64,000 nucleotides of DNA from contig JAJYNW010000015.1 of the NCBI GenBank assembly GCA_021786105.1, positions 18,752-82,751 on the forward strand, in the 5' to 3' direction. The translations under genes were made by a program, and so were the position numbers. The notes under the pieces were generated by a model. It was not told the DNA's origin. It was given only the letters and a program-made list of their open reading frames with translations, and made no database searches. Positions 36,449-54,267 of this stretch are shown one piece after another; positions within the stretch are counted from its first letter, which is position 1; every line of letters starts with the position of its first letter. This DNA comes from a bacterium. Lineage in GTDB: Bacteria; Patescibacteriota; Microgenomatia; Daviesbacterales; UBA10151.

Positions 36449-37540
36449 ATGGTTAAATCAAAAAGAGAAACACAACTGGACGAAAAAAAGCTCCTCAAGT
36501 TAGGCAAGGATCGGGGTTTTGTGACCCAGGAGGAGATTTTGCAGGTTTTTCCCAAGCCGGAAGAAACAATCGAAAAGCTGGATGAGTTTTTTATTAAATT
36601 AATCGAAGACAGTATTGATGTTTTCGAAACCACGGCTGAGGAGCTGGAAGCGGAAACCAAGTCCACTACCGAGCTGGAAAAAGAACTGGAGATTTTATCG
36701 ACTTTGGAAGGCGGTTCGGTGACGGATCCGGTCAGGCAATACCTTCGCGATATCGGCAAGATCCCGCTGTTGACTGCTGCTGATGAGATTGATTTGGCCA
36801 AACGGGCCGAGAAAAACGAAAAAAGAGCCCGGGATAAATTGATCAGCGCCAATTTGCGGTTGGTAGTCTCAATTGCTAAAAAGTATGTTGGGCGTGGTAT
36901 GAGCCTTTTGGATTTAATTGAAGAAGGAAACATTGGTTTGATGCGGGCAGTGGATAAATATGACTGGCGGAGAGGTTATAAATTCTCTACATATGCCACT
37001 TGGTGGATTAGACAAGCTATTACCCGGGCCATTGCTGATCAAGCTCGAACTATTAGAATTCCGGTGCACATGGTGGAAACTATTAATCGATTTAACCGGA
37101 CTCAAAGAAGGTTGATGCAGGAGTTGGGCCGGGAGCCAACCCCGGAAGAGGTGGCTAAGGCTTTGGGAATCGATGAAAGCAAGGCCCGGGAAATTATTAA
37201 AGTATCTCAAGAGCCAACTTCTTTGGAGACTCCAGTGGGTGATGAGGAAGATTCGCATTTGGGAGATTTTATTGCTGATCAGGGTTTGCAGCCGGACGAG
37301 CAAGCTACCCGGGAACTGTTGAAAATTCACTTGGATGAGGTGTTGGGTAGTTTATCACCGCGGGAAAAAAGAGTTTTACAGTTAAGATTTGGCTTGGAAG
37401 ACGGTAAGCAAAGGACTTTAGAAGAAGTGGGGAAAGAGTTTGGGGTGACCCGGGAGCGTATCAGGCAAATTGAGGCTAAAGCCATTAGGAAATTAAAGCA
37501 TCCAACTCGTGCCAAAAAACTCCGCGATTACCTGGAATAA
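36449..37540 (+). CDS. rpoD: Primary sigma factor
   Basis: [49 protein letters not shown] and [13 protein letters not shown]. Confidence 0.97.
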
Positions 37541-37547
37541 CTTCCTT

Positions 37548-37592
37548 TGTCATTGCGAACCCCGCCCGTATGGTGCGAGGGTGCGGCAATCT
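37548..37592. repeat. Half copy of a related palindromic repeat
   Basis: TGTCATTGCGA...GCGGCAATCT between convergent genes. Confidence 0.5.
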
Positions 37593-37595
37593 ATA

Positions 37596-37865
37596 TTACT
37601 TTTGTAATCTATTCCAAAGCAAAGCAAAAACATAACCAAAGACGTAACCTATTATGGCAGTAACGACTATTAAAGTTACCCATTTAACTACATCAAATGA
37701 TTGGACAGTGAATGGATTATTCAAAAAATGAATGCCGTAAACAAAATCCAGTATGGCTCCAGCCAAACCCATGGCCACCAGTAAGCCCCAGACAAAATGC
37801 CACAGCCCGGCAAATGTTCCCACCACCAACGCTGTTTTATTGGGATTTAATTTCAAGTTTCTCAC
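37596..37865 (-). CDS. Small membrane protein
   Basis: 89-aa hydrophobic ORF with a GAGGGG RBS-like sequence. Confidence 0.7.
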   Translation of the reverse strand: MRNLKLNPNKTALVVGTFAGLWHFVWGLLVAMGLAGAILDFVYGIHFLNNPFTVQSFDVVKWVTLIVVTAIIGYVFGYVFALLWNRLQK

Positions 37866-37949
37866 CCCCTCTAAATTAGGTGTACATCGTTGGGTTTAAA
37901 AATGCAAGATCAGTTGGTATAATTGCAGAGCTATTTAACAATTAAATAT

Positions 37950-38024
37950 TCCCCTGTAGCTCAACGGTAGAGCAGGAAGCTGTTAACTTCAAGGTTCGTG
38001 GTTCGAATCCACGCGGGGGAGCCA
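37950..38024 (+). tRNA. tRNA-Asn(GTT), integration target
   Basis: TCCCCTG acceptor stem, CT GTT AA loop, GGTTCGAATCC T-arm and GCCA end. Confidence 0.93.
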
Positions 38025-39512
38025 AGGTGTTTTCTGTATAACCTGCTGATTATCGCGCAGTGTCGCGAAAATCGGAGTTGGGACAGTTGCAAAAATCTTC
38101 TTATTTTTAACCATTACCTTCTCATAAAAGAACCTTAAGTAGTGCCGCTTCATAAAGGGTGGCGCATCCTTATAAGTCGCGTAAATATCGCGTGTGAAGG
38201 CCAATGTATCGTCAATCAGGTTGATATCGATTCTGCAGCGGTCATCGACATCCTGTAATTGTGTTTCCATTTGTCTTACCTGATCCTGTAGCTCGGTGTG
38301 CTTGCGCTTAAACACTTCCCGGTCGATTGTTCCCTCAATCAGCGCATCCTCAAGCTTATTTCTCTTCATCTCAAGGGCTAGTTTCTGATTAAGAATGCCC
38401 TGCTTGACACTTGTGGCATTTGCGCGGCTCTCTTCCAGTTTCTCGCGCGTTTTTCGGACAACGGCTTCGATAAAATCAGGGCTAAACTGCATATTCTTAA
38501 ATTCCTGCTCAACCTGATACTCAAGATCATCCACTTCTACATATGGTGCGCGACAACCATTTCGTTCTCGCTTAGGGCAATGATAATAGGCTATCTTGCC
38601 GCCTCGAGCGCGCAGTTTATGCGCGTTCTTATGCCATTCAGCCACATAACGCTGACCACATTCGGAACAGTAGACAAAACCGCCTAAGAGCCAGTTGTGT
38701 ATTCGGCGACGCATTAGAAAGTTGCGATGCTTGGCCAGAACATACTGGCAGGTGTCATATATGTCTTTTGAAATAATTGGTATGTGATTGCCCATCTTTC
38801 CTTCGCCGTGCCAACGAATCCAGCCGTAGTAGAAGGGGTTGTTGAGAATGGTGTGAATAACGCTGTGACCCAAACCTGTGCCAGTTCGCGACAAGATATT
38901 GCGTTCTGCCAGCCAATCCTGAATCTCAATGATGGAATAGTTGCCTGTGGAGTAAAGTTCATACAGTTCTTTGATAATTGGCGCAGTGTAGGGGTCAGGC
39001 TCGCAGGTTTTGCGCTCTCTGTCACCGCCAACAGTTCGGTAGCCAATAGGCGGTGGTGTAGGTTGCCAACCTTCCCGGAATTTTTGTACCAGCGCGTCAC
39101 GCGTGCGCTGGCCGTTTACATCAGATTCCCATTCAGCGACACTAGCGAGAATATTAGCAATAAGACTCGATCCTTGCGTCACATTGCCTTCTAAGACAGA
39201 AATCATCTGAAGCCCTTTTGACTCGATCTCTTTGCGGGTATCGCGAAAATCTGAAACATTGCGCGCAAAGCGGTCGATTTTGTAGATAATCAGCGCGTCA
39301 ACTTTGAACTCATCGACTGCTTTAAGAAGTTCTTGGAAGGCTGGGCGTTGCGTGGTGCGCCCGCTTTTGCCATCATCGAGAAATATGTGCTTTACATGGT
39401 AATCGTGGCTACGCGCATAATCCATACAGGCGCGTTTTTGGTTCTCCAACGAGAAGCCTTCAGTCGCCTGTTCATCGGTTGAAACGCGCAGGTATAAGTA
39501 GCAGGTATTCAT
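37989..39512 (-). CDS. Large serine recombinase (integrase)
   Basis: YLRVSTDEQ catalytic motif, D.GKSG...RPAF, IDRFAR, recombinase domain, CSECG...CPK...C zinc ribbon and coiled coil. ATG 39512 overlaps the upstream stop. Confidence 0.93.
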   Translation of the reverse strand: MNTCYLYLRVSTDEQATEGFSLENQKRACMDYARSHDYHVKHIFLDDGKSGRTTQRPAFQELLKAVDEFKVDALIIYKIDRFARNVSDFRDTRKEIESKGLQMISVLEGNVTQGSSLIANILASVAEWESDVNGQRTRDALVQKFREGWQPTPPPIGYRTVGGDRERKTCEPDPYTAPIIKELYELYSTGNYSIIEIQDWLAERNILSRTGTGLGHSVIHTILNNPFYYGWIRWHGEGKMGNHIPIISKDIYDTCQYVLAKHRNFLMRRRIHNWLLGGFVYCSECGQRYVAEWHKNAHKLRARGGKIAYYHCPKRERNGCRAPYVEVDDLEYQVEQEFKNMQFSPDFIEAVVRKTREKLEESRANATSVKQGILNQKLALEMKRNKLEDALIEGTIDREVFKRKHTELQDQVRQMETQLQDVDDRCRIDINLIDDTLAFTRDIYATYKDAPPFMKRHYLRFFYEKVMVKNKKIFATVPTPIFATLRDNQQVIQKTPWLPRVDSNHEP

Positions 39513-39721
39513 ATTCCCCGGTTTAGGTCGCTGAACCTCATTTTCATCGGGCGCTGTCCGTATCTTCGTGCTATCTTTGCGGCTTCTTTGTTGATTATGT
39601 CCAGATACGGCTTCGTTTTTTCTTTCGCCTGCTCGTAGGTCATCACGCCATGTCGCATCGCCAGATGTATCGCGCGCGTCTCTGCCAGCAATTCTCGCAA
39701 GTTTATCTTTTCGTTCTTCAT
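39509..39721 (-). CDS. Small basic protein coupled to the integrase (RDF candidate)
   Basis: 70-aa ORF with an ATGA overlap with the integrase start. Confidence 0.6.
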   Translation of the reverse strand: MKNEKINLRELLAETRAIHLAMRHGVMTYEQAKEKTKPYLDIINKEAAKIARRYGQRPMKMRFSDLNRGI

Positions 39722-39773
39722 AATGTCTTATAGTCGTATCAATATTCATAAGATTTTTAGCTTATTGCAAGCC

Positions 39774-40160
39774 TTAAGTTTGATTTTCCTTTGCGCGTTT
39801 CCAAGTCGCCACATCGGTAAAGATAATACTTAACGGCTCGCCATCCTTACTCTCGTGCTGTATCCTGTCGGTCTCAATCATTCCGTGGTCTGATTTCAAA
39901 AGAAAGATAATGACAGAAGGGCTTTTAAGTCCAAGTGTCTTTAGGGTCAGCCGTTGGTGATCCATTATGCGGTCTACCGCTCCGCAAAAGTCCTCATTAG
40001 CCTCGGACCAGCGTTTTAGACTATCTGTACTTACCCCTAAACGCTCGGCAAACTCTTCAAGAAAAGGTATTTTCCGGGCGTTTTTGCACTCTATGAGGTA
40101 CTTTTCCGCCTCTTTTATAAACTCTCCTTTGTACTTAGTTGGCCTACCCATTTTTGTCAT
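39774..40160 (-). CDS. Terminase small subunit-like DNA-packaging protein
   Basis: MGRPTKY N-terminus, HTH (FAERLGVSTDSLKRW), IIFLLK and a beta-strand tail, as in P22 gp3-type TerS. Confidence 0.7.
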   Translation of the reverse strand: MTKMGRPTKYKGEFIKEAEKYLIECKNARKIPFLEEFAERLGVSTDSLKRWSEANEDFCGAVDRIMDHQRLTLKTLGLKSPSVIIFLLKSDHGMIETDRIQHESKDGEPLSIIFTDVATWKRAKENQT

Positions 40161-40915
40161 ACTGATTTTTTCTGCTGTTCACCATGTTTTTCAAAATATT
40201 CCTTAACTTTTGCATTAAAAACCTTGCCTTTGTTCTCAATAGTAGGATCCTGTTTTATCTCCCTGACATACTGATAAAACATGTTTGGGGGTAGTCCTTT
40301 TTCTAATGCGCGCAAATAGGTTAATTTTAGTGCCCAAGGATGGTCTGGCTCTAGCGCTATATGTGCCTCATTGGCCGCAACCTCACCCTCGTTAGTGGGA
40401 TTAAAAAATTTACTTGTATAGTTTTTTTCCACTTCCATACCTAAAAACTCTTTATCGGCGACATATTCGCTTTTATTACTCTCTGTTGGATTTAATTCGC
40501 TTATATTAGATTGAGTAGCACTAGTGGTACCATTTTGTATCCCATCCGTCTCCAAATTGGATCCATTATTATTAGTAAGTGAGGGTAAATCCGAAGGTTT
40601 ATATCTATCACTTTTAATTTGTTGATACTTTCCCCAATTTATAAATTCAACAAACCACTCTTCAGTTTTCAGATTAGGCCACCAATATATCAATCCCGCA
40701 TCGTGCATTTCTTCTAAATAATGCTTAATTTTCTTAAATGACCATTTCTTCAAAGGAACGACAGTACCTTTTATGGACTCCGCTTCTCCTCGCATTCTTC
40801 CATCATCATCAGCGTGAGCAATCATCCAAGTAAAGAGTAGCTGCGCAGGTGGGGAAAGTTTATTTACCTGCAACGAGGTTGATATTTTGTTATGTAACAT
40901 TCGAGCTTTAGCCAT
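40157..40915 (-). CDS. Phage-type replication initiator / replisome organiser
   Basis: MAKARM...LLFTWMIAHADDDGR winged-helix N-terminus, INWGKYQ, low-complexity linker and helical C-terminal domain. Confidence 0.7.
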   Translation of the reverse strand: MAKARMLHNKISTSLQVNKLSPPAQLLFTWMIAHADDDGRMRGEAESIKGTVVPLKKWSFKKIKHYLEEMHDAGLIYWWPNLKTEEWFVEFINWGKYQQIKSDRYKPSDLPSLTNNNGSNLETDGIQNGTTSATQSNISELNPTESNKSEYVADKEFLGMEVEKNYTSKFFNPTNEGEVAANEAHIALEPDHPWALKLTYLRALEKGLPPNMFYQYVREIKQDPTIENKGKVFNAKVKEYFEKHGEQQKKSV

Positions 40916-41174
40916 GATTATTTTTATTTATTCGCGCTAAGGCGATACCCTTTTTTATTCTTTTGCTCATTTGCTGTTTATAGTAGGCATCGGTTAGCTT
41001 TTTTGCTCGTACATGGGTAAGTACAAGATTTACCCATTGTTCAGCAATTTTATCTATTTTCAGGTCCTTATTACTGTCGTTTTTGCTAATCATTTTTGTG
41101 AAAAAAGCCTGTCTTTTAATGACCTCAAAACTTCTGAGTATCGCCTCGCGTCGAGCTTTAAGCCACCAGACCAA
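40908..41174 (-). CDS. Small hypothetical protein (start uncertain, possibly 41093)
   Basis: Coupled between the neighbouring ORFs; IAEQWVNLVL helix. Confidence 0.45.
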   Translation of the reverse strand: MVWWLKARREAILRSFEVIKRQAFFTKMISKNDSNKDLKIDKIAEQWVNLVLTHVRAKKLTDAYYKQQMSKRIKKGIALARINKNNHG

Positions 41175-41341
41175 TAGTCGTTGGCTAGTTGTTCACAAAC
41201 AGATTTATTGGCAAAAATGAACCAGAAGAATTTACTTTCTTTTTGGAGTCTTAGTAGTTGTACAGAAGAACAGATTAGCCCAGCTGCCTCGCCGAGGTCT
41301 TTCGTAAAATATTCATCAATATACGCCTTATCCATATACAT
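41090..41341 (-). CDS. DUF5659-like small phage/MGE protein
   Basis: FTKDLGEAAGL...FWFIF...YWSGGLKLDARRY...LKDRLF. Confidence 0.65.
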   Translation of the reverse strand: MYMDKAYIDEYFTKDLGEAAGLICSSVQLLRLQKESKFFWFIFANKSVCEQLANDYWSGGLKLDARRYSEVLRSLKDRLFSQK

Positions 41342-41428
41342 ATATGATCAGGCATATCCGTGAGGTTGAATACACGAGGTAAAAACTACTTCAGCCTTAT
41401 TTTGGAGCAATTTTGAGGATATTTGAGG

Positions 41429-41875
41429 TTATGGTTTAATTTCTACTTTACAATTCAGACCGAACCCCTTGTCTACAATAAAAAAGTCGTTAACCTTATC
41501 CTTCACCAAACCGAGCTCTTTTCTAATTGTTTGGATCGTATCTCGCGCTCTTCGATCTGGAGTTGAATCACTGTATTCGCGAGCCTTATTCAAAACCTCA
41601 GCTGTTTGATCGGCTGTATATATTTTCCCTGGATATTGGATCAAAAGTGACAATAATAGATAGCCGTTGTCTCTAGGACCAAAGTGGCCTGTATGGTTTT
41701 TACCAGATCTGTCTATATAAGTAACATTTCCGGTGCTTTTATAAAATTCTAAAGTGTTCGATCGATCCGCTAACATACCCCGCTGATCTATTATTTTTTG
41801 TTTATTATTTCGTGGATTGGTTTGCCCAGAAATTAAAACATAGTCCTGAAGTTGTTTATTTTTCCCCATATACAT
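41429..41875 (-). CDS. Winged-helix DNA-binding protein (OmpR C-terminal-like)
   Basis: LLSLLIQYPGKIYT...RDTIQTIRKELG...KGFGL. Confidence 0.6.
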   Translation of the reverse strand: MYMGKNKQLQDYVLISGQTNPRNNKQKIIDQRGMLADRSNTLEFYKSTGNVTYIDRSGKNHTGHFGPRDNGYLLLSLLIQYPGKIYTADQTAEVLNKAREYSDSTPDRRARDTIQTIRKELGLVKDKVNDFFIVDKGFGLNCKVEIKP

Positions 41876-41942
41876 CTACATTTCCGGGCAGGAGATCTTT
41901 ATTTTAGCAGAAAATTATGTTCAGTTCTTCTCTCTCGACAGC

Positions 41943-42563
41943 TTACAGCGAGGTAAGTCCGTCATACTTTGCGGCGCGGTGATTAGTGTTATCCGTAAAA
42001 TAGTACTGAGCAATTTTGTATCCATAAGCGGTTTGGTCAAGTTCCAGCGCCATGCGCACTACCTTCGCGACATAGCCGACAAACTCGCCTCCAGATGGGA
42101 TTATGCGCAACTCATCTACAATAACGCGCACTCGCGCGCCCTGTCGGCTCACGCTGCGCACATAATGCGCATCAACGGAGAAATTACGCCCTTGTGTTGC
42201 AAAAAGTCGCGCCGGGTTTGATACACCAACACGCGCGAGATCCACACCGAGTATAGAGTCTAGTTCTGACTGTTCCTCTTTTGTTTCAGGTGAAGAAAAG
42301 AAGTTCATGACTTTCTCCGCATCTCTTTGCTGTAGTGCGTTTTCAAAGGTATCCGTCAAAGCCACAACCTGTGTTTGTTTATCATCACTGACACCTGAAG
42401 CGCTAATTCCTTGCGCTTCGAGAACAATCTCGTTTCCGGTGTTTATCTGTTGAGTTTGGGGAGTAACGCGATGTGCAAACCACCCAATTGAAAAGCCCAG
42501 TAATAAGAATCCGGCAGGAACGAGTAGCATGAGCGCTTTGTATTTTTGGAAAGTGTTAAACAT
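41943..42563 (-). CDS. Membrane-anchored exported protein (NTF2-like fold possible)
   Basis: N-terminal TM helix; FENALQQRDAEKVMNFFS helix pattern. Confidence 0.6.
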   Translation of the reverse strand: MFNTFQKYKALMLLVPAGFLLLGFSIGWFAHRVTPQTQQINTGNEIVLEAQGISASGVSDDKQTQVVALTDTFENALQQRDAEKVMNFFSSPETKEEQSELDSILGVDLARVGVSNPARLFATQGRNFSVDAHYVRSVSRQGARVRVIVDELRIIPSGGEFVGYVAKVVRMALELDQTAYGYKIAQYYFTDNTNHRAAKYDGLTSL

Positions 42564-42567
42564 AATT

Positions 42568-42780
42568 TTATTTACCCCAAACACGAAAGATAATAAGACA
42601 AGGAACAGAGACAATAATGCTTCCTAAAATAAATTGAGTAAAGTTTGGCTCAGTCCAAGACCTTAGAACTGTCGTTCCCTGAGTTTCTACAACTGGGGTA
42701 AGTGTAAAAACAAACATTAGGGCGATCAAAACAACCCAAACAGTCAAAATTACCTTTTGGCTTTTATTTAATGTTTTCAT
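42568..42780 (-). CDS. Small two-TM membrane protein
   Basis: 70 aa, two hydrophobic helices, GGAG RBS. Confidence 0.6.
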   Translation of the reverse strand: MKTLNKSQKVILTVWVVLIALMFVFTLTPVVETQGTTVLRSWTEPNFTQFILGSIIVSVPCLIIFRVWGK

Positions 42781-42826
42781 TCTCCATGCTCACCCCCTTT
42801 GGGTTTTTGCTGGAGAGGAATGTAAA

Positions 42827-42952
42827 AGCTCCCCGCTAGCGATGGCTTGCGCCACCTGCAAACCTTTCGGTCTGCAACCTTCGCAGGTGCTCTAACGAGG
42901 AGCTGTTTCCTGCGAAGGTTTTGATGCCATGCCCCTTACGGGGTTTAGGCAA
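42827..42952 (-). ncRNA. Unidentified structured RNA
   Basis: Several long stems, a GAAA tetraloop hairpin and an 11-nt-receptor-like CCTAAA/CATGG hairpin. Confidence 0.55.
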
Positions 42953-42968
42953 TATTAAAATGTGAGGT

Positions 42969-42994
42969 AATTATACAACATTTGATGTATAATT
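42969..42994. promoter_or_regulatory. Palindromic divergent promoter/operator
   Basis: AATTATACA-8 nt-TGTATAATT places a TATAAT -10 box on each strand between the divergent arms of the element. Confidence 0.6.
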
Positions 42995-43028
42995 GGGTGG
43001 AAGTTTTTTGTCTTAATAAGGGTATTAC

Positions 43029-43214
43029 ATGCCAAGAGCCATAAAACTATTAAGAATACGCGAGGCGGCGGAAATGTTGGGGGTAAACCCCGAAACGCTA
43101 CGGCGTTGGGACAAAAGCGGCAAACTTAAACCTATCATCATAAGTAAACGCGGTGATAGGCGCTATAAAAAGGAGGATATTGTACGGTTCCTTAAAAAAC
43201 TTGCCGAACAATAA
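43029..43214 (+). CDS. Excisionase/MerR-like HTH protein
   Basis: LLRIREAAEMLGVNPETLRRWDKSGKL...GDRRY. Confidence 0.85.
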   Translation: MPRAIKLLRIREAAEMLGVNPETLRRWDKSGKLKPIIISKRGDRRYKKEDIVRFLKKLAEQ

Positions 43215-43228
43215 CTATAAAAATAAAT

Positions 43229-45931
43229 ATGGAATATGTTGATGAGCACGCCACGCGCAAAAAGTGGATAGACGATAAACTCAAAAAATCGGGTTGGGAA
43301 AACATTATCCCCTACAAAGAGGGCTTAGATACAACCACACTACACAAAACCGCAGTTGAGGAGTTTGTTACCGCGACTGGACCCGTTGATTATGCGCTTT
43401 TTGCCAATGGTAAATTAGTTGCGTTTGTTGAGGCTAAAAAAATCGGTCTTGGTCCCCAAAATGTATTATCCCAAGCTCAACGTTATGTAAAAGGTGCCCA
43501 AGCTCAAGGACAGGAAGTGCCGTTTATTTATTCCACAAATGGCGAAGTGATTTGGTTCCAAGATTTACGCATAAGCCCAAGCCGCTCACGCCAAGTCGCG
43601 GAATTTCACACACCAAAGGCACTTATTGAATACCTCACCAACCCGACCCATGAGAATGTACGTTGGTTTACCGATAACCCGCCCGATTATGCCAAGTTAC
43701 GCTACTACCAACGCGACGCTATTGTTGCCATTGAAAACGCCATAGCTAATCACAAACGCTCAATGCTTGTTGCTATGGCAACTGGTACGGGCAAGACATT
43801 TACTATTGCCTCACTCGCTTACCGCTTGCTCAAATCGGGTGTAAGCAAACGCATTTTGTTTTTAGTTGACCGTAAAGCGTTAGCCGCCCAAGCAGTGATG
43901 GAGTTTGCGGCATATGAGGCGGAAAACGGCTTAAAGTTTAACCAAATATACCAAGTGTATAGCCAACGTTTTCACCTAGACGATTTTGAAAGTGATGAAA
44001 AAGTTGATTTTAATATGGTACCCACAAGTTACCTTACCGACCCCGACGGGAACCAAGTATTTGTATATGTATCAACCATACAGCGGATGCAAATTAACTT
44101 ATACGGCAAGGAGGGAATGTTTAGTTACAGTGGTGATTATGACCCCGACGATGATGCCGATAAAATTGATATGCCTATTAACGCCTTTGATACGATTGTT
44201 GCCGATGAATGTCATAGAGGTTATACCTCACAGGAAGTGAGCAAGTGGCGTGGCGTACTTGACCATTTTGATGCCTTAAAAATAGGACTTACGGCAACAC
44301 CAGCGGCACACACAACTAGCTATTTTAAGGAAATTGCCTACCGCTACACCTATGAGCAAGCCGTACAAGATGGGTATTTGGTTGATTATGACGCCGTAAA
44401 AATATCCTCAGGTGTTCGTATTAAAGGCATTACCCTAAAAGAGGGTGAAGAGGTTGAGCAAGTTGATACCGAAACGGGAGCGCAACAACTTGATTTACTT
44501 GAGGACGAGCGGCATTTTGAGGTTGCTGATGTTGAGCGCGATATTACCGCGCCCGATAGCAACCGCAAAATTATCCAGGAGTTTGCAAAATATGCCCTTG
44601 AGCAAGAAAAAGAATTAGAGCGTTTCCCCAAAAGTTTGATCTTTGCCCATAATGACCTGCCACACACGTCTCACGCCGACCAGTTGGTTGATATTTGCCG
44701 TGATGTATTTGGCAGGGGTGATGCATTCGTGCAAAAAATAACGGGTTCACCCACCGTTGACCGACCGCTCACCCGCATAAAGGAGTTTAGAAACCGCCCC
44801 GACCCTCATATTGTTATCACCGTGGACATGCTATCAACAGGTGTCGATATACCCTCAATTGAAAATATTGTGTTTTTGCGCGCTGTAAAATCGCGTATTC
44901 TCTTTGAGCAAATGCTTGGGCGTGGCACAAGACTTTGCAAAAACTTCCCCAATGGTCTAGGCACGCTCGAAAAAACTCACTTTACGGTGTTTGACTGCTT
45001 TGACGGCACGCTTTTGGAAGCATTCAAAAATAGCACAGGTATTACCCAGGTCACACCAGTAAACCCAACCCGTACTATTGAACAAATTATTAGCGATATA
45101 AACAACAACATTGATGTTGAATACAATACGCGTTGCCTCGTAAAGCGATTGCAACGCATCGCCAAAAACATTACCTCTGAGGGTCGGGAAATGTTTGCTA
45201 AATACATAGCCGATGGCGACATTGCCGCCTTTGCCAAAAACTTACCCGATGCTTTAGCTACCGAAAGGGTTGCAACTCTTAAAATACTTACTGACCAAAA
45301 GTTTATTGACCTGCTTATACATTACCCGCGCCCCCCAAAGCGGTTTATACGCGCTATTGAGCAAGAAGACATTGTAGCCTCGGAATATATATTTAGGACA
45401 ACCGACGGGCGCGAGTTAAAGCCCGAGGACTATATAACCCAATTCGAGCGGTTTGTTAAGGAAAACCCCGAACACATTGAGGCAATAAGCATTGTACTTA
45501 ATAAGCCAAAAGGGTGGAACACGGAAGCACTTAAGGAATTGCGTACCTCGCTTGCCCAACAACCCGAACGTTTTACCGAGGAAAACCTGCGCCGAGCCTA
45601 CAAATACCCGCTTGCCGACATTATTTCAATGGTTAAGCACGCCGCCAAAGATGAACCGCTACTGTCCGCCAAAGAGCGAGTTGATTTAGCAATGGCAAAA
45701 GTAATGGGTGATAAAAAAGTTACCGACAAACAAGAGCAATGGTTGGAGCTTATAAAGCTACACCTTGTTGAAAACTTAACAATTGATGTGCAGGACTTTG
45801 ATGAAATGCCAATCTTTGTTAATCTCGGTGGAAGCTTTAAGCGCATTAACGCCGATTTTGACGGTAAGTTAATGCCATTTATAAATGAGATTAACGCAAC
45901 AATACCAGCCGTTTATGCCTATGCAAACTAA
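43229..45931 (+). CDS. hsdR: Type I restriction enzyme R subunit (EcoEI-like)
   Basis: VDYAL...VEAKK nuclease motif, MATGTGKT, DECHR, LTATP, MLSTGVD and QMLGRGTR. Confidence 0.95.
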   Translation: MEYVDEHATRKKWIDDKLKKSGWENIIPYKEGLDTTTLHKTAVEEFVTATGPVDYALFANGKLVAFVEAKKIGLGPQNVLSQAQRYVKGAQAQGQEVPFIYSTNGEVIWFQDLRISPSRSRQVAEFHTPKALIEYLTNPTHENVRWFTDNPPDYAKLRYYQRDAIVAIENAIANHKRSMLVAMATGTGKTFTIASLAYRLLKSGVSKRILFLVDRKALAAQAVMEFAAYEAENGLKFNQIYQVYSQRFHLDDFESDEKVDFNMVPTSYLTDPDGNQVFVYVSTIQRMQINLYGKEGMFSYSGDYDPDDDADKIDMPINAFDTIVADECHRGYTSQEVSKWRGVLDHFDALKIGLTATPAAHTTSYFKEIAYRYTYEQAVQDGYLVDYDAVKISSGVRIKGITLKEGEEVEQVDTETGAQQLDLLEDERHFEVADVERDITAPDSNRKIIQEFAKYALEQEKELERFPKSLIFAHNDLPHTSHADQLVDICRDVFGRGDAFVQKITGSPTVDRPLTRIKEFRNRPDPHIVITVDMLSTGVDIPSIENIVFLRAVKSRILFEQMLGRGTRLCKNFPNGLGTLEKTHFTVFDCFDGTLLEAFKNSTGITQVTPVNPTRTIEQIISDINNNIDVEYNTRCLVKRLQRIAKNITSEGREMFAKYIADGDIAAFAKNLPDALATERVATLKILTDQKFIDLLIHYPRPPKRFIRAIEQEDIVASEYIFRTTDGRELKPEDYITQFERFVKENPEHIEAISIVLNKPKGWNTEALKELRTSLAQQPERFTEENLRRAYKYPLADIISMVKHAAKDEPLLSAKERVDLAMAKVMGDKKVTDKQEQWLELIKLHLVENLTIDVQDFDEMPIFVNLGGSFKRINADFDGKLMPFINEINATIPAVYAYAN

Positions 45932-47342
45932 TACAAATATTGTCAATAAATTATGGGGATACTGTCATGTTTTGCGCCATGACGGTATGGACTACGGCGA
46001 TTACGTTGAGCAACTAACCTACTTGCTTTTCCTCAAAATGGCGGAGGAAAAAGGGGCAGTTATACCCAAGGAATATTCTTGGTCGGTATTAAAAACTAAA
46101 TCGGGTACGGAGTTGCTTGATTTTTATAGCGAGCTTTTGCGTGGGCTTGCCAAACAAGAGGGGTTATTGGGTGCGATATTTGTAGAGGCGCTTTCAAAGT
46201 TTACAAAGCCCGTAGGCCTTAAAAGGTTAATTGATTTGATTGATGAAATTGAGTGGTCGGCGTTAAACATTGATGTTAAAGCCCAAGCCTATGAGGGGTT
46301 ATTAGAAAAATCAGCCGCCGAAGGCAAAAAGGGTGCAGGACAATACTTCACGCCCCGTGTGCTTATCCAATCAATTATAAATGTAATGAAACCCGACCCA
46401 AGGGTGTCAAAAGATTTTACCGTTTGTGATCCCGCCGCAGGTACTGGCGGTTTTTTGCTTAGTGCTTACGAGTGGTTTTTACACCAAACGGGTGGCGCAA
46501 TTAACCGTGATGATTTGGAGCGCATAAAGAAAAACACTTATTTTGGCACCGAGCTTGTAGCACGTCCTCGAAGGCTTGCACTTATGAACCTTTATTTGCA
46601 TGGAATAATTTCAAATATTCGCTTGGGCGATAGTATTTATGAACCCGACCGAGGCGAGAGGTTCGATGTAGTTTTGACTAACCCGCCCTTTGGTACCAAA
46701 GGTGCAAACCAAATACCCGAACGGCAAGACTTTACGGTCGATACAAGTAACAAGCAACTTAATTTTGTCCAACACATTCTTACCATCCTTAAACCTGGTG
46801 GTAGGGCGGCTATTGTGTTGCCCGACAACGTGCTATTTGGCGACCAAGCCGCAGAGGTATTCAAAATACTCATGCAAGATTGTAACCTGCATACTATTTT
46901 GCGTTTACCAAGAGGTACTTTTACCCCATACAGCCAAGGAGTAAAGGCAAATGTAGTGTTTTTTACCAAGGGGATACCCACCGAAAATGTGTGGATATAT
47001 GATGCACGTACCAATGTGCCAGGGATAACTAAAAAAGACCGTCCATTAACACATAGACACTTTGAGGAGTTTGAAAAGTGTTATGGCGATAACGCGAGTG
47101 GACAATCACCCCGTGATGAAAATCACTCTAAGGAAAACCGATGGAAAAAGTTTACTGTGGTTCAAGTTAAGGAGAAAAATTACAAACTGGATAGCTTTAA
47201 GTGGCTAAAAGAGGAAGACATTGAGAATAGTAACGAGATTGGTGAACCAGAGGAAATTATTGTAGACGTAAAGTCTAGTCTTGAGGAAGCGCTTGCAAGC
47301 CTTGATAAGGTCTATGAGCAACTTACTAACGATGACAAATAA
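45915..47342 (+). CDS. hsdM: Type I R-M N6-adenine methyltransferase
   Basis: GQYFTPR, DPAAGTGGFL and NPPF; start at 45915 or 45921. Confidence 0.95.
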   Translation: MPMQTNTNIVNKLWGYCHVLRHDGMDYGDYVEQLTYLLFLKMAEEKGAVIPKEYSWSVLKTKSGTELLDFYSELLRGLAKQEGLLGAIFVEALSKFTKPVGLKRLIDLIDEIEWSALNIDVKAQAYEGLLEKSAAEGKKGAGQYFTPRVLIQSIINVMKPDPRVSKDFTVCDPAAGTGGFLLSAYEWFLHQTGGAINRDDLERIKKNTYFGTELVARPRRLALMNLYLHGIISNIRLGDSIYEPDRGERFDVVLTNPPFGTKGANQIPERQDFTVDTSNKQLNFVQHILTILKPGGRAAIVLPDNVLFGDQAAEVFKILMQDCNLHTILRLPRGTFTPYSQGVKANVVFFTKGIPTENVWIYDARTNVPGITKKDRPLTHRHFEEFEKCYGDNASGQSPRDENHSKENRWKKFTVVQVKEKNYKLDSFKWLKEEDIENSNEIGEPEEIIVDVKSSLEEALASLDKVYEQLTNDDK

Positions 47343-48552
47343 TGGAACTTATAAAATCGGTGACATTTGTGACGTAAAAACGGGTAAAAAGGATGTTAAT
47401 GCCGAAAATGTTGATGGAAAATATCCCTTTTTTACCTGTGCGCAGGGTATTCATAAAATCAATACCTATACTTTTGATGATGAAGCTGTTCTTGTAGCAG
47501 GAAACGGTTTTTTTAACGTTAAGTATTACAAAGGCAAGTTTGACGCATACCAACGAACTTATGTGCTACACAATTTCAAAAGTAACATTAGAGGGAAATA
47601 CCTTTATTACTTCATTAATCACAGGCTTGACGATATAACTAAGGATAATAGAGGTAGCACAATAAGGTATATAAGGCTTGGTGATATTACAGAGCAACAG
47701 GTTTCCCTACCTCCAATTGAACAACAGGACAAAGCAATCGAACTACTCGACCAAGCAATACAAGAAATTAGTTTAGGAAGTGAAAAGGTTAGTAAATCAC
47801 GATTGCTCGTTCAAAAGTTTAAGCAAGCAATTTTATCCGCCGCAGTTACAGGTAAACTTACAGAAAATTGGCGCGCAAAAAATTATGACGACGACACTTA
47901 TCAAGATTTTAACCTTGAAAATGGGGAGGTTATACAAATCCCTGCACTTTGGGAAAGAAGGGCTATTGGAGATTTTGTTTTAGACATAGAGGCAGGCAAA
48001 AACTTTACTTGCCCCGAAGTGCCTGTAAGTGGCAACAATGTTGGGATAGTAAAAATTAGTGCTGTAACTTGGGGTGAATTTGATGAAAAGGAAACTAAAA
48101 CCGTAGAGGATGAGAGTAAAATTGATGAAAAGTTATTTATTAACAAGGAAGATTTTTTAATCTCACGAGCAAATACAATTGAATTAGTCGGAGCTTCCGT
48201 GGTTGTTGGAGAGGTTAGGCATAAGATTATGCTAAGCGATAAGGTATGGCGTGTTAATTTTGAGGATATAAACAAGGAATATGTTAATTACTACCTAAAA
48301 TCACGTATTGGCAGATCCGAAATTGAGGCACGAGCGACAGGCAACCAACAATCAATGCGCAACATATCCCAAAGTAACTTTAAGGCAATTAACTTACCTA
48401 CTCCAAGTGATAATGAACAAGCCGAAATTGTAAGAATTGTAAAGCAATATCTTGAGATTGCAAACCAAGTTGAAAAGCAAATTGAAAAAGCCGAAGCACG
48501 GGTGTCAAAACTTACCCAAGCCATTTTGGCAAAAACGTTTAGACAAGAATAA
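47332..48552 (+). CDS. hsdS: Type I R-M specificity subunit
   Basis: Two TRDs separated by LPPIEQQ...KQAILSAAVTGKLT; C-terminal EQAEIV...QAILAKTF. Confidence 0.93.
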   Translation: MTNNGTYKIGDICDVKTGKKDVNAENVDGKYPFFTCAQGIHKINTYTFDDEAVLVAGNGFFNVKYYKGKFDAYQRTYVLHNFKSNIRGKYLYYFINHRLDDITKDNRGSTIRYIRLGDITEQQVSLPPIEQQDKAIELLDQAIQEISLGSEKVSKSRLLVQKFKQAILSAAVTGKLTENWRAKNYDDDTYQDFNLENGEVIQIPALWERRAIGDFVLDIEAGKNFTCPEVPVSGNNVGIVKISAVTWGEFDEKETKTVEDESKIDEKLFINKEDFLISRANTIELVGASVVVGEVRHKIMLSDKVWRVNFEDINKEYVNYYLKSRIGRSEIEARATGNQQSMRNISQSNFKAINLPTPSDNEQAEIVRIVKQYLEIANQVEKQIEKAEARVSKLTQAILAKTFRQE

Positions 48553-48560
48553 AAATAACC

Positions 48561-49403
48561 ATGTCATATGTATCAAGTGGGTTAATTAACCAAGTATCGG
48601 GTGGTGTATCGCAAAGCGCCGTTGATGCAATATCGGCGTTTCAAAACAATGTACGCTCCCTTTTACAACTAAGCTACGACACTTTTTTACAAGGAAGTTA
48701 TGCTAACGACACCGAAATAAAGGACTTTAATGATGTTGACATTGTGGCATTACAAAAACCATTACAAGGGCTACTTTCAAGTTTTAGCGCGTCAACAAAC
48801 TTGTTTTACGACGTTAAAACTAAGTTGGAAACAAACCAAAATTATAGAGGCCGAATAACGGTTGGGCGCAAATGTTTAACCCTTGATTTAGGCACAAGAA
48901 AAGCGGATATTGTGCCAGCAAGACGTACGATGGGCGGGCAACCTAATGCTTATGGCGAGCCGATTTTAATTGGGCAAAACATTCCAAATTATCCAAAAAC
49001 TCACATAAGTATCGGTCAAGCTAAAAACCAACGAACAAACAACAATTATAAACGTGTGGTTCGTATGGTTAAAAATTATGTAAACAAGTGGAACCTTAAA
49101 GGTGTAGCTCCTTCCTTTTATGTTGAATGTATGATTTACAGCTACACCGACGCCACGTTTTCCAACGACCTACCTTACACACTTAACAATATACTTACAC
49201 ACATGGTTGGTAATAATTTCAGTGCAGGTTTTCGTACCGTTGCAGGGGACAAAATTGTAATTTCACAAACCGAGTGGTTTCCCCAAAGTTTTTTCGCTTT
49301 TAGGCAACACGTAGCGGCAAAGTTGCCTTACCTTAGTTCAGCGGTTATGGCTACCAGCGAAGCAAATGCAAATAGCTATTTCAGGAGCTTTTTTAATATA
49401 TGA
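48561..49403 (+). CDS. CBASS cGAS/DncV-like nucleotidyltransferase (CD-NTase, CdnE-like)
   Basis: LQGSYANDT...DVD, ADIVPA, NYPKTH...KN..T...YKRVVRMVK and PSFYVEC. Confidence 0.88.
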   Translation: MSYVSSGLINQVSGGVSQSAVDAISAFQNNVRSLLQLSYDTFLQGSYANDTEIKDFNDVDIVALQKPLQGLLSSFSASTNLFYDVKTKLETNQNYRGRITVGRKCLTLDLGTRKADIVPARRTMGGQPNAYGEPILIGQNIPNYPKTHISIGQAKNQRTNNNYKRVVRMVKNYVNKWNLKGVAPSFYVECMIYSYTDATFSNDLPYTLNNILTHMVGNNFSAGFRTVAGDKIVISQTEWFPQSFFAFRQHVAAKLPYLSSAVMATSEANANSYFRSFFNI

Positions 49404-49996
49404 AAGACCAGCAAAAGTACATTACATCAATAGTTTTGCTTGTAACTGCAATTTTTATTTTTGGCGAGTGGGTTGAAACATGGTTTGGCAAGGGAATTGC
49501 CTCATTTATTACATCAATTAGCACCGTTAGCGTAATTATTTATGGTTTATACCTTGCTTGGGATAAGTGGCTGTGGAAACAAAAAGGGTTAGCTTACATT
49601 TTAAGTAAGCTTGTCGGTTTTTATGAATACCCCGCGTTAGATGGCAAATGGAAAATAGTATATGAAAGCACTTTTGGAAATACTACAAAAGGCGCGGGTG
49701 AAGCAACAATTCAACAAAGCTATTCTTCTTTATTTATTGAGGGAAACTTTGGGCAAAATTCATCATTTGATAGTTATTTTGCTCAACTAAAACAAAAAGA
49801 AAATGGTAAATGGTTTTTAGTTTATACCTACCGCAATAAGCCACATAGTACAAAACTTACCAATTCACCTTCGGGTGGTATGCACGAGGGGTTTGCTTAC
49901 TTGGACGTAGTTGATAAAAACAAGTTGATAGGTTACTACTCCAATGATGAAAACCGTAAAACTAGAGGCAAATTGACTTTTACAAAAATAAATTAG
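49400..49996 (+). CDS. cap15: CBASS Cap15-like 2TM beta-barrel effector (S_2TMBeta)
   Basis: Two TM helices, WLWK, P.LDGKW, IQQSY, YTYRNKP, HEGFAYL, GYYSND and TRGKL; overlaps the CD-NTase stop. Confidence 0.85.
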   Translation: MKDQQKYITSIVLLVTAIFIFGEWVETWFGKGIASFITSISTVSVIIYGLYLAWDKWLWKQKGLAYILSKLVGFYEYPALDGKWKIVYESTFGNTTKGAGEATIQQSYSSLFIEGNFGQNSSFDSYFAQLKQKENGKWFLVYTYRNKPHSTKLTNSPSGGMHEGFAYLDVVDKNKLIGYYSNDENRKTRGKLTFTKIN

Positions 49997-50000
49997 ACCT

Positions 50001-50459
50001 ATGATGAAATTATTAACCGAAGACTTTGTACAAGAGCAAATAATAAAGTATTTAACCAGCAAAGGGTGGGGCACGAGCCTAAAATCAAAAACCCTCAAGG
50101 AGCATGGGGTTGATATTAAGGTGCGCAATGATAAGTTTCCGCGGTATTGGCTTATTGAATGTAAAGGTGATGCTAGTACAAATGCCAAGTACCCAAAATC
50201 ACATAGGGAAGTACACTTTAACCTTGCCTTAGGGCAAATTATTACCCGCATGCAAACCAAGAGGAGGGCTAGAGGTTACAAATACGGCTACAAGTACGGT
50301 GTAGGCTATCCTGCGTCATTTAGGGACTTGGTAATGCGCCGTTTGCCTTATGATGTTTGCTATAAGCTCAATTTGTACGTGTTTTTAGTTGATGAAGGCG
50401 GTGCAGTGGAGAAACTTGAATGGCGTGATTTGAAAAATGCACAAGTAAAAGCTAAGTAG
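50001..50459 (+). CDS. Small PD-(D/E)XK restriction-like nuclease
   Basis: TEDFVQ...HGVDIKV...LIECKG...LGQI. Confidence 0.7.
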   Translation: MMKLLTEDFVQEQIIKYLTSKGWGTSLKSKTLKEHGVDIKVRNDKFPRYWLIECKGDASTNAKYPKSHREVHFNLALGQIITRMQTKRRARGYKYGYKYGVGYPASFRDLVMRRLPYDVCYKLNLYVFLVDEGGAVEKLEWRDLKNAQVKAK

Positions 50460-50741
50460 CAACTTGGAACGCAGGGTCGCGCTGGAGTTTTTTAATTTCA
50501 AGCCACCGTTGCTTTAACTCACCCATATATCCAACGTGTTGAAAGGCTTGGATGATAGCCTTAAAATCAATTGGTATAGGGTGTTTAGGCGCGGGGAGCA
50601 AATGTCAGGTACTAACAACAAGTACAAAAGCACCATGAGCTTCGCGAAGATAACAGCCATTTCATGAAAAGAACCAAATAAGAAAAAAATGGTAGAATAG
50701 TGAAAGCGACGGGCAAAAGGTTCTGCGAGGAGGAACGATGA

Positions 50742-50825
50742 ATGAAAAACTATATTCGAAGAAAAAATTCTTCTCATTAATTCATGAAAAATTATATTCG
50801 AAGCATAAATACTTCTCATTAGTTT
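50742..50825 (+). repeat. 42-bp tandem repeat, two copies
   Basis: Units ATGAAAAA(C/T)TATATTCGAAG...CTTCTCATTA at 50742 and 50784. Confidence 0.8.
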
Positions 50826-51191
50826 ATGAAGAACTATAAAGCAAAAGATGTTGATGAATTCATTGCAAGTGCACCAGAAGAAGCCCAGTCTAAACTTAGG
50901 GAAATAAGAGTGGTTGTAAAATCGATTATTCCAAACGCAGAGGAGAAAATAAGCTGGGGCGTGCCTTTCTACTGGTATCAGGGTGCTCTTGCTGGATTTA
51001 CTCCATGTAAAAGCTATGTGCTCTTTGGCCTCGTGACCGTGCTTGACAATAAAGACCGCGAAACGTTCGGAAAAAAGGGTTACAAAACTGGCAAAAAAAC
51101 CATACAAATCAAGTTCGACCAAAAAGTTCCGATCACATTGATAAAGCAAATTCTAAAAACACAAGCAAAAATGAATGAAGCCAAAAAATAA
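50826..51191 (+). CDS. DUF1801/YdhG-like protein
   Basis: VDEFIA..P...LREIR...PNAEEKISWGVPFY...GKKTIQ. Confidence 0.85.
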   Translation: MKNYKAKDVDEFIASAPEEAQSKLREIRVVVKSIIPNAEEKISWGVPFYWYQGALAGFTPCKSYVLFGLVTVLDNKDRETFGKKGYKTGKKTIQIKFDQKVPITLIKQILKTQAKMNEAKK

Positions 51192-51267
51192 TAGAAATTT
51201 ACTCAGCGCCGCGAGTGTTTTTTCTTACAGCTTATTTTTTATCAATTCAATATAATTTACTTCAAAG

Positions 51268-51615
51268 ATGCCCTCTTTAATAATCATTATTTTTGGTTAT
51301 TTTCGAGCTTTGCTTGGTGTTTTGAAAGATCCAGCTGTTAAAGGTTTGGCCTTATTTATCACACTCTATCTTTTGTTTGGAACCTTCTTTTATCATCGAA
51401 CTGAGGGATGGAGTTACCTGGATTCGGCTTATTTTTGTGTGGTTACGCTAGCTACTGTCGGTTTTGGAGATTTTACCCCCAAAACCAGCCTGGGAAAATT
51501 TTTTACCATTTTTTATATCATGATAGGCATTGGGTCGTTTGTCGCCTTTGCCACGGCTCTGGCCCAGAATATGGTTGAAAGAAGGAGCAATAGACGTAAA
51601 AGGCTTTCAAAATGA
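51268..51615 (+). CDS. Minimal two-TM ion channel (Ion_trans_2, NaK/KcsA-like)
   Basis: EGWSYLDSAYFCVVTLATVGFGDFTP. Confidence 0.9.
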   Translation: MPSLIIIIFGYFRALLGVLKDPAVKGLALFITLYLLFGTFFYHRTEGWSYLDSAYFCVVTLATVGFGDFTPKTSLGKFFTIFYIMIGIGSFVAFATALAQNMVERRSNRRKRLSK

Positions 51616-52511: not shown

Positions 52512-53576
52512 TTAAGTAAGAATAAATTGTTTTGCAATTTTTTCAATGCCTTTTTGCAAAACATACCCTAACAAAATAAATAAACCTAAGTTTAATGTTA
52601 CATCCAAAAAGGGTGGTAATCCTAAAAAGGGGTTAAATCGGGAAACAATCGGCCAGTGCAGCAGGTAAATTTCATAAGAATAGATCCCAAAAATAGAGAA
52701 CAATCCAAATTCCAGTTTGGATAAAGCAAAGATAACGATTGCTGAAAAAGTAGTAATTAGACTGATACCCTGTTCGATTTTGGGATCCTGACCGACCCCG
52801 GAATAATAAGCAGTATAAAGGAAAACCAGGGTGGCTGCTCCAATAATCAGGATTTTTACAATCCGGTTTAGCTTAAATTTTAGATAAGGGATTACTAAAG
52901 CAAATAACATTCCTAAAGGAAAAGCTAAAGAGTGTAATTTATAAAGCTTTAATACATCGGATTTAACAGGCAGCGGTAAATTAAGCAGAAGCCAGCTTAA
53001 AAGCAGGATTAATAAAGGGGAGAGTAGGGGAATTTTTTTAAAAAACAACAGCGGAAACACCAAGTAATAAAACAGAATTGGGGAAAAATACCATAAGGGT
53101 GAATCCAAACTTTGCCATAAATTAGCTTTAGGGTAAAAACCTAATAGGCTATGGACGATTTCTGCTATCGGATAAACTCGGTGCAACAGGAAAAAATCCA
53201 GCAGTAACACCAAGGTGATTACCGCCCAGAGCGGGATAAATAATTTGGAGAGCCTTTTTTTGTAGAAAGAGAGAGATGAGAGCGGGGATTTCAGCTGGGA
53301 TAGTGTCAACCCAAAGCCTGACAAAAACAAAAATATATTAACCCCCACTCCGGAGGCCACCGATAAAGGGAATAGGAACCTATTATCAGAGGATAAAAAA
53401 TAGCCGATATGACCAAAGACAACAGCTAAAATTGCCAGTCCTTTTAACTGGTTAGTAACTTCTTTGGAGAAAAAACCGGCATTTTGTGTCCTTTTTACGG
53501 AAATAAACAGTAAACCCGTAAGAATTAGGGAGACAAGAATAGTTTGAAAAGTTGGGTCGGAAACGTTAATCAACAT
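52512..53576 (-). CDS. Acyltransferase_3 family membrane O-acyltransferase
   Basis: LKGLAILAVVFGH, GVNIFLFLSGFGL, LWYF and SYEIYLLHW. Confidence 0.9.
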   Translation of the reverse strand: MLINVSDPTFQTILVSLILTGLLFISVKRTQNAGFFSKEVTNQLKGLAILAVVFGHIGYFLSSDNRFLFPLSVASGVGVNIFLFLSGFGLTLSQLKSPLSSLSFYKKRLSKLFIPLWAVITLVLLLDFFLLHRVYPIAEIVHSLLGFYPKANLWQSLDSPLWYFSPILFYYLVFPLLFFKKIPLLSPLLILLLSWLLLNLPLPVKSDVLKLYKLHSLAFPLGMLFALVIPYLKFKLNRIVKILIIGAATLVFLYTAYYSGVGQDPKIEQGISLITTFSAIVIFALSKLEFGLFSIFGIYSYEIYLLHWPIVSRFNPFLGLPPFLDVTLNLGLFILLGYVLQKGIEKIAKQFILT

Positions 53577-54267
53577 TAATTACTTTTAGCCATTCCTTAT
53601 ATCCTTGATCCGAGGGGTGAAACTGGTCTGCTGAGTAAAATTGGGCAGATTTGGTTAAAGGGTACAGGTCAATATAAACTGCTCTGTATTCCAAAGCTGC
53701 CTTTTTAATCGCCTCATTAAACTGTTTAGTCCGGGCCGCCCAAATCAGATTATAGGGAAAGAGTACTATTTTATCAGATCCCAAGTAGGGAATGGATAGT
53801 AGGTAAACTTTGGCACCATTTTTTTGTAAAGCTGAAACAATCTGATTATAGTTATTCTTAAATTCGGTTAAGGATTTTAAGCCATGGATGTCATTGATGC
53901 CGATGAACAGTGTTACCAGATTCGGTTTGGCGGACAGAGCTTGGGGCAGTTGTTTGGTGAGGACATCGTCCGATCTGGCTCCGGATTGGGAGAAATTCCA
54001 CAGTTCCACATTATTTTGGGCAGATAACTTTTGGGCAAGGAGATATGGATAGGAGTTTTGATAATCGGAGGCGCCGACACCGGCTGTTAAGCTGTCGCCC
54101 AGGGCTACATATTTAATGATTCGGTTACCGGGATGGGTGCCAATCAGTGTTTTGGTTTCATGAGGCGGAGGCGCTAAATGCTTTTGACCCAGAAAATCAA
54201 AGAAGTAAACATAATTACCAATCAAATAAATGATAATTATCAAAAAAATGAGCAGGAATTTTTTCAC
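53566..54267 (-). CDS. Exported SGNH/GDSL hydrolase
   Basis: LGDSLTAG, GA, IGIND and DQFHPS. Confidence 0.92.
   Translation of the reverse strand: MKKFLLIFLIIIIYLIGNYVYFFDFLGQKHLAPPPHETKTLIGTHPGNRIIKYVALGDSLTAGVGASDYQNSYPYLLAQKLSAQNNVELWNFSQSGARSDDVLTKQLPQALSAKPNLVTLFIGINDIHGLKSLTEFKNNYNQIVSALQKNGAKVYLLSIPYLGSDKIVLFPYNLIWAARTKQFNEAIKKAALEYRAVYIDLYPLTKSAQFYSADQFHPSDQGYKEWLKVINVD

Follow-up and report, generated by a model that had tools for sequence, protein, structure and literature searches.

We describe a large serine recombinase gene that ends inside a tRNA gene and whose C-terminal segment very probably lies 12.6 kb away, in a 64,000-nucleotide stretch (hereafter the window) of contig JAJYNW010000015.1 (GenBank assembly GCA_021786105.1, positions 18,752 to 82,751) from a bacterium of the Patescibacteriota. 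The integrase open reading frame (ORF) occupies 37989-39749 on the minus strand and extends 36 nt into a tRNA-Asn (gtt) gene, located by ARAGORN at 37950-38024 on the plus strand, which is the integration target; the same left-flank gene adjoins this tRNA gene across the genus, and its last bases are the crossover core. At the core the integrase ORF carries the codons CTC CCC (L-P), which are followed by eight residues encoded by the antisense strand of the tRNA, giving a short, or prophage, form of 586 amino acids (aa). The core GGGGAGC stands at 38016-38022 (attL) and again at 50593-50599 (attR), where host DNA restarts; comparison across loci narrows the common stretch to GGAGC. Next to the second copy lies the detached integrase tail (50452-50592, minus strand), which consists of 46 codons and a stop and lacks both an ATG and a Shine-Dalgarno motif. 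The DNA from 38023 to 50592 constitutes a 12.6-kb integrative element, a mobile defence island, inserted at the 3' end of tRNA-Asn. We assign a probability of roughly 0.8 to the explanation as a whole, in which the element was inserted by its own integrase, attP lies inside the integrase ORF, and the tail is detached on integration and rejoined on excision. The structural reading is well supported and is held with high confidence.

The integrase, the core repeats and the detached tail

The integrase is a large serine recombinase by its Pfam domains, its catalytic serine and its fold. It contains the domains Resolvase (PF00239, E 2.9e-34, residues 84-227), Recombinase (PF07508, E 3e-15) and the zinc ribbon Zn_ribbon_recom (PF13408, E 2.2e-10), and the catalytic serine, S90, is invariant across 53 aligned sequences. 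The model of P0118, a long homologue, has a coiled coil made of two extended helices (348-395 and 401-429), and Foldseek returned as best matches for this model the structures 9dxd_A (SPbeta, E 2e-21), 9iu2_A (Bxb1), 9rah (phiC31) and 4kis (LI). The family consensus start corresponds to M80 (39512) of the window ORF. Ahead of it, at 39512-39749 on the minus strand, lies a charged N-terminal extension of 79 aa that is also present in the homologues P0003 and P0006 and at the locus L067 (98% coverage, 77-82% identity), and which may, given this recurrence, be genuine. A single integrase of this family is encoded in the whole genome (1,037,274 bases); another large serine recombinase, unrelated and 32% identical to the window integrase, lies on contig 14 (63188-64633, plus strand).

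The detached tail is part of a 49-aa ORF (50452-50601, minus strand) that begins L-L-P and whose CTC CCC codons share their phase with those of the integrase. When the two ends are joined at the core, the frame stays open for 46 codons (50592 down to 50455) and closes at a stop at 50454-50452. In the window as it stands, a stop sits two codons upstream of the core leucine codon, and no ATG is available to the detached tail. The simplest reading of these sequences is that the tail is translated as the end of the integrase once both ends are joined. A profile built from 70 tails and searched against the whole genome gave a single match, the detached ORF (E 2.4e-25). Because this sole tail match sits at the core, in a genome with one integrase of the family, the split stands above chance.

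The rebuilt attP has TATA 15 nt from the core on either side and TGATT/AATCA at about 24-29 nt, and inverted GGTTATA-type motifs, which are predicted attP arms, flank the core both in the window and in contiguous relatives. The integrase-side arm (P', 38023-38051) lies inside the ORF, where the half-site motif, read as the codons V-I, is common to relatives. The rebuilt attB would end in ...GGGGGAGC, followed by AAATG. Other tRNA-Asn genes of the genus continue after GAGC with TG, AG, AT or TC, and an encoded CCA is therefore unnecessary at the rebuilt site. The initial annotation of this stretch had described an integrase reading past the core into the tRNA-Asn antisense, a second core with a stop-free, in-frame continuation, and an imperfectly symmetric attP; the overlap with the tRNA, the shared codon phase and the spacing of the motifs bear out all three.

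Two lines of evidence fix the right end of the element. In run X1, a unitig spans exactly 37996-50624 at a depth of 22.6 (flanks 25-30), and at 50595 an alternative path links the same host flank to the end of another element. The metagenome contig L142, whose tail is 85% identical, can be aligned to the window only from the core to the tail stop, and its flanks are unrelated. At the left end, another path in run X1 enters a different integrase 3' end after 38025. The community in this run holds strains with other elements at the same tRNA-Asn, and one of the alternative ends reads like a different tail family. Among genus relatives, G017 alone keeps homologues of the window genes at 52512-54267, about 6 kb past its tRNA, which gives a coarse boundary only.

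Relatives of the integrase and contents of the element

A protein search yielded 461 relatives among 8000 scored candidates. Among the best 120 of these, most C-termini continue after L-P or L-R with tRNA-antisense residues of the D-S-N type, and three proteins (P0118, P0102 and P0008) run on into a segment that aligns with the detached ORF of the window. These three are contiguous long forms, as are the loci L090, L116, L144 and L164. A scan of species-representative genomes gave 153 relatives, of which 80 were kept; 57 of them (L062-L118) have 42-88% identity and come mostly from metagenome-assembled genomes of the Microgenomates group, with several from other Patescibacteria, many of the taxon labels being generic or evidently wrong. 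The integrase 3' end is visible in 56 of the 57 loci. According to ARAGORN, it overlaps tRNA-Asn in 21 and tRNA-His in two; of the remaining ends, 14 are tRNA-antisense-like, two carry a contiguous tail, one runs off the contig and 16 end otherwise. None of the 14 antisense-like ends received an ARAGORN call, in some cases because the tRNA holds an intron.

Several relatives have a tRNA-Asn with an insert of about 200 nt (L101:2816-3029 on the minus strand, G003, G004, G005, G007, G012, G016 and G018), and the insert in L101 is a group I intron (Rfam RF00028, 93.9 bits, E 6.7e-25). The odd, long C-termini of P0021, P0028 and P0059 arise because their integrase ORFs read through the tRNA antisense into the intron. 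The two loci ending inside tRNA-His (L112 and L115) are distant relatives at 42-43% identity, and no tail of the family was found in the genome behind L112.

In the 57 loci, a hidden Markov model of the tail found it upstream on the integrase strand in 16 and contiguous in two. The whole genomes behind 20 further loci were also searched, because the 10-kb flank is shorter than the 10.85 kb between integrase start and core. In 13 of these genomes, a tail shares the contig and strand of the integrase and lies 10-16 kb upstream (L065, L076, L080, L084, L085, L086, L088, L092, L093, L094, L105, L111 and L114). Combined, 29 loci have a tail ORF on the integrase strand, 6-16 kb upstream, and none has one on the opposite strand, and the core codons of integrase and tail are in phase in 17 of 19 evaluable cases, a count that covers related loci and is thus not a probability. 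The initial annotation had asked whether homologous tails lie in frame at the distal core. Eight of the in-phase cases share the exact 5-mer (the window, L067, L068, L069, L072, L077, L081 and L095), four have CTCC in common (L082, L091, L098 and L107), and L080, L084, L092, L093 and L094 make up the rest. The exceptions are L078, which is out of phase, and L085, which is decayed; L075, L104, L106 and L117 are outside the count. L069 belongs to a subfamily in which the core is read with a shift of one base (S-S-P), and the L069 tail keeps that frame.

The tail is strongly conserved as a protein even though the integrase bodies are only 50-60% identical. Identity at the three codon positions was 0.57, 0.71 and 0.39 (153 pairs from 18 tails); this measure replaces dN/dS because synonymous sites are saturated in most pairs, with a median pN of 0.32 and pS saturated at 0.91. 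Conservation peaks 75-120 nt from the core, in the stretch G-E-L-R-Q-R-W, one variable residue and E-I-K-K-L. Since third positions vary most and this stretch is outside any plausible attP, the tail is kept as a protein. A tail devoid of homologues or of purifying selection would have spoken against the first proposal; homologues were found, and the codon-position pattern is that of selection on a protein.

Tails also occur apart from integrases of the family. The tail is present in six of 401 genomes of an even sample of the phylum, and it has 223 matches among 1.84 billion cluster representatives, the best 150 of which are 35-323 aa long. In metagenomes, 337 contigs encode tail relatives; among the 80 of these that were kept, two (L144 and L164) are contiguous with an integrase body of this family, and most stand alone, often in same-strand arrays of two to six or 0.4-3 kb from a tRNA-Asn without an integrase. 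Arrays of two to six intact or partial tails without an integrase, which look like accreted cassettes, were seen in L142, L154, L160, L175, L196 and L215/L216, at L171:2600-3400 and at L194:9940-10640. One unit in L171 comprises a tail and, as judged by eye, a RidA-like gene between direct repeats (about 45 nt) containing the core, beside tRNA-Asn. Stand-alone tails in L106, L142, L154, L157, L175, L196 and L215 are preceded by one and the same short sequence, composed of 10-nt repeats (GAAATCCGTA-like) that reach the core. At least two other conserved C-terminal segments, unrelated to the tail, are found in the family, one set in P0013, P0045, P0092, P0111, P0120 and L117 and another in P0024, P0091, P0109, L087 and L099. 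Such other tail types, which begin for example with LAKWDDYR or LPLVDIF, were found contiguous only; in none of the 80 genome loci do they occupy the distal site. Viral contigs scanned with single proteins gave no match, and an alignment scan gave only relatives of at most 36% identity.

Two arrangements depart from the simple split. In six tandem arrangements (L095, L107, L102 with L105, L076, L094 and L111), the upstream recombinase is fused in frame to the tail of the next element, and some of these upstream recombinases belong to another family, of about 570-580 aa. It follows that the long form can be chromosomal and that tails can pass from one element to another. In an unsplit variant (L101:2480-2790 and L104:11400-11780, the latter on contig 21 of G015, from the genus of the window), the long form is kept beside the tRNA; behind its stop codon follow some 60 nt, then a second copy (27 nt) of the integrase's own arm, and then the core and tRNA-Asn. 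In L104 there is, in addition, a weak and partial tail 9.4 kb upstream.

The element itself carries defence genes as cargo. Adjoining the integrase is a 128-aa ORF (39774-40160, minus strand) with weak small-terminase/helix-turn-helix similarity (PHROG E 4e-8) and no Pfam match, which by position only is a candidate excision cofactor. It is followed by a gene for a replication-initiator-like protein of 252 aa (40157-40915, minus strand; phrog_1408, E 3.6e-10). A type I restriction-modification system occupies 43229-48552 on the plus strand (HsdR 43229-45931, HsdM 45885-47342, HsdS 47281-48552), with Pfam matches to ResIII/EcoEI_R_C, N6_Mtase and Methylase_S. Beside it, at 48561-50459 on the plus strand, three genes look like a defence set of the cyclic-oligonucleotide-based antiphage signalling system (CBASS) kind. 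Their products are a SMODS-like protein, whose score of 22.9 bits falls short of the Pfam cut-off, a Cap15-type receptor protein for cyclic dinucleotides and a 152-aa protein without assigned function. Among the ten element ORFs scanned, there is no capsid, portal or large terminase, which rules out a phage, and no second resolvase-domain ORF.

Predicted docking of the tail and competing explanations

In the mechanism that we propose, attP lies in a flexible linker that joins the zinc-ribbon/coiled-coil DNA-binding domain to a conserved C-terminal module of two helices, about 45 aa long. Because attP lies inside the recombinase ORF, integration cuts the integrase gene: the inserted element encodes the enzyme body with eight tRNA-antisense residues, and the tail module is stranded 12.6 kb off, with neither a start nor a ribosome-binding site. 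Excision, or the insertion of a second element beside the tRNA, would rejoin a tail in frame. The long form would then be the complete, integration-proficient enzyme, and the short form would have altered coiled-coil control or stability. The long form is favoured as the integration-proficient one because of the docking predicted for the tail, on the coiled-coil base.

This prediction comes from structural modelling. The AlphaFold2 model of P0118 has a mean predicted local distance difference test (pLDDT) score of 81.3; the att-encoded linker (499-519) is disordered with a pLDDT below 50, and the tail forms helices at 509-520 and 522-547, in agreement with the earlier suggestion that it resembles helices. 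A complex prediction of integrase residues 340-578 with tail residues 4-49 gave an ipSAE of 0.76 (runs 0.74, 0.76 and 0.76), against 0.20 for the best control. Among 80 solved complexes 58 attained that mark, and among 110 mismatched pairs two did, counts that hold only roughly because our own alignments were used. The partner pLDDT was 76-77, and the runs share at least 80% of their contacts. The predicted contacts fall at the entry and exit of the coiled coil (426-437 and 503-515) and at the end of the conserved domain (532-540 and 558-567). In a recent report on phiC31 (10.1101/2025.05.02.651858), the directionality factor touches the integrase at its extreme C-terminus and at the helices through which the chain enters and leaves the coiled coil, and it remains functional when fused to the integrase C-terminus through a flexible linker. 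The modelling thus supports a position of the tail on the integrase control surface used by directionality factors.

Several results weigh against the proposed mechanism as a whole. The docking is a prediction and not a measurement, and beyond residue 520 the tail helices of P0118 have block-mean pLDDT values of only about 65-75. The 7-mer core was rejected as evidence by itself, as the nine copies of GGGGAGC in the window compare with an expectation of 6.6 and are matched in 25 of 100 shuffles. In four runs over 37400-51400, neither a circle junction nor an empty attB was found, although these were assembled contigs only, from which rare variants are dropped. No circular contig with the long form was found either, L116 having no terminal repeat, and the contiguous forms may thus represent junctions between tandem elements instead of free attP. 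Seven of the 20 genomes searched in full yielded no tail on the contig of the integrase (L070, L071, L083, L096, L108, L110 and L112). Phage and plasmid collections gave nothing above 29.5% identity and no tail. Finally, judging from the unsplit variant and the tandems, the tail is not strictly absent in the inserted state. The initial annotation had proposed two isoforms that depend on the state of the element; the split anatomy and the detached tail stand, but a strict coupling of isoform and state does not, because tandem elements and the unsplit variant exist. The directionality or stability switch that it suggested is a hypothesis, for which the predicted docking is the one new support. 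We put the odds that the long and short forms differ in activity at about even.

One way in which they might differ is a factor-free direction switch, in which the tethered tail occupies the directionality-factor site, being attached in the circle and removed on insertion. We regard this version as doubtful. If it were true, integration and excision could be told apart in this family without a separate factor, and the tails left at tRNA-Asn would be an exchangeable pool swapped by tandem elements.

The strongest competing explanation is attenuation alone, as in Mx8: the short form would be weakened or unstable and would lock the element in, while site choice is unchanged. According to the available text on Mx8 (PMC6070905), integration makes a new int 3' end and changes the enzyme without inactivating it, and in our models the loss of the docked module would expose the conserved residues 532-540. 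Against this, the family is widespread with many intact copies, which speaks for inserted elements still moving. The present data do not separate attenuation from a change of direction, and we consider it possible, at clearly less than even odds.

The split may also be neutral, with the attachment site merely falling in a linker, the tail aiding folding, the two forms alike and a separate factor setting direction. The enzyme body alone has all the canonical domains, the unsplit variants and tandem junctions have the long form coexisting with the inserted state, and the 128-aa ORF beside the integrase could be the separate cofactor. A dispensable tail should decay, however, and this one is conserved across bodies of 50-60% identity and is predicted to lie on the surface that controls direction. 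A neutral split is therefore disfavoured and seems to us unlikely.

Less probable again is that the tail is also produced by itself at the far junction and works in trans on the short integrase, either as a small cofactor or to divert incoming elements as a decoy. The core is preceded by ATG, GTG or TTG in 48 of 85 distinct tails; but this NTG codon follows from a conserved CA after GAGC in the core, and TGG, which is not a start, is the second commonest codon at this position (15 of 85). Gene callers do list the tail as a protein (the best 150 of the 223 cluster representatives, at the lengths given above), the docking prediction treated the tail as a chain of its own, intact tails stand in the integrase-less arrays, and the host flank has two promoter-like sites 150-220 nt upstream. 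The upstream flank nevertheless varies between loci, and a Shine-Dalgarno-like motif is no commoner before tails (8 of 85) than at random sites (140 of 2000), compared with 15 of 46 integrase starts.

The view that there is no split, in which the right boundary would lie at another place and the in-frame ORF would be either a small gene in its own right or coincidental, could draw on the chance-level core and on the fact that no empty site was recovered from genus relatives searched by right flank and tRNA, but the latter arises because DNA downstream of tRNA-Asn is not syntenic in the genus, and the single tail match per genome at the core, the in-phase junctions, the zero opposite-strand matches, the contiguous homologues and the break of both unitig and alternative path at the core leave this view already close to refuted.

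Comparison with known systems

The choice between integration and excision by large serine integrases is an active question, with the first full structures dating from 2025-2026, and it also limits the use of these enzymes in genome editing. A natural family that gains or loses, with the state of recombination, a module predicted to lie on the control surface would allow a direct and cheap comparison of isoforms, and could yield enzymes whose direction needs no second protein. The start-less tails also explain hundreds of orphan small ORFs (the 223 cluster representatives) and mark element boundaries at tRNA-Asn in genomes of the candidate phyla radiation.

The initial annotation had not recognised a split integrase of this kind as described before. 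Precedents exist, as far as the available parts of the sources go, in the Dehalococcoides ssrA islands (McMurdie et al. 2011, PMC3146451) and in Mx8, and the novelty of the present case is accordingly limited; our literature search found no described serine integrase with an intragenic attP beyond the Dehalococcoides paper. In the available part of that paper, the 3' end of dsiB, which encodes a 540-aa serine recombinase, always overlaps attL, and the authors suggest that dsiB may be fully functional only on the circle or beside an island holding the 3' fragment. The islands occur in tandem, some without an integration module, and are attributed to accretion; the C-terminal part of DsiB is reported as divergent, and no conserved tail is identified in that part of the text. 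Both systems thus have a serine recombinase gene overlapping attL, a target at the 3' end of a small stable RNA gene, and tandems. They differ in the target, which is ssrA there and tRNA-Asn here, and in the companion small serine recombinase DsiA, which has no counterpart among the ten element ORFs. The relative L116 does carry a small serine recombinase upstream.

Mx8 IntP/IntX resembles the present system, according to the available text (PMC6070905), in that attP lies inside int, a tRNA gene region is targeted, and integration renews the 3' end and alters the enzyme. It differs in being a tyrosine recombinase, with another mechanism and no coiled-coil control, as opposed to the serine recombinase described here. 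The segment replaced in Mx8 is also said to be much larger than the tail. Archaeal integrases of the SSV1/pTN3 type are likewise tyrosine recombinases whose gene is partitioned by its own attachment site, but the split falls within the body, whereas here a serine enzyme loses only a C-terminal module. In mycobacteriophage BPs and cluster P, which use a tyrosine integrase, attP lies in the repressor gene and integration alters the repressor C-terminus; an intragenic attP and a C-terminus changed by integration are shared with our system, but the protein affected is the repressor and not the integrase.

Canonical large serine integrases are the closest in enzyme, with the same domain set and fold. 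In the available parts of recent reports (10.1101/2025.05.02.651858, PMC11722253, PMC12286644), their direction is set via the coiled coil of the second DNA-binding domain, which is the place where the tail is predicted to dock. In those integrases attP lies outside the gene and a separate factor is used, whereas in the family described here the module is part of the integrase and would be attached or detached by recombination itself. What is new here is the controlled complex prediction, in which the tail occupies the coiled-coil base, the binding place of directionality factors.

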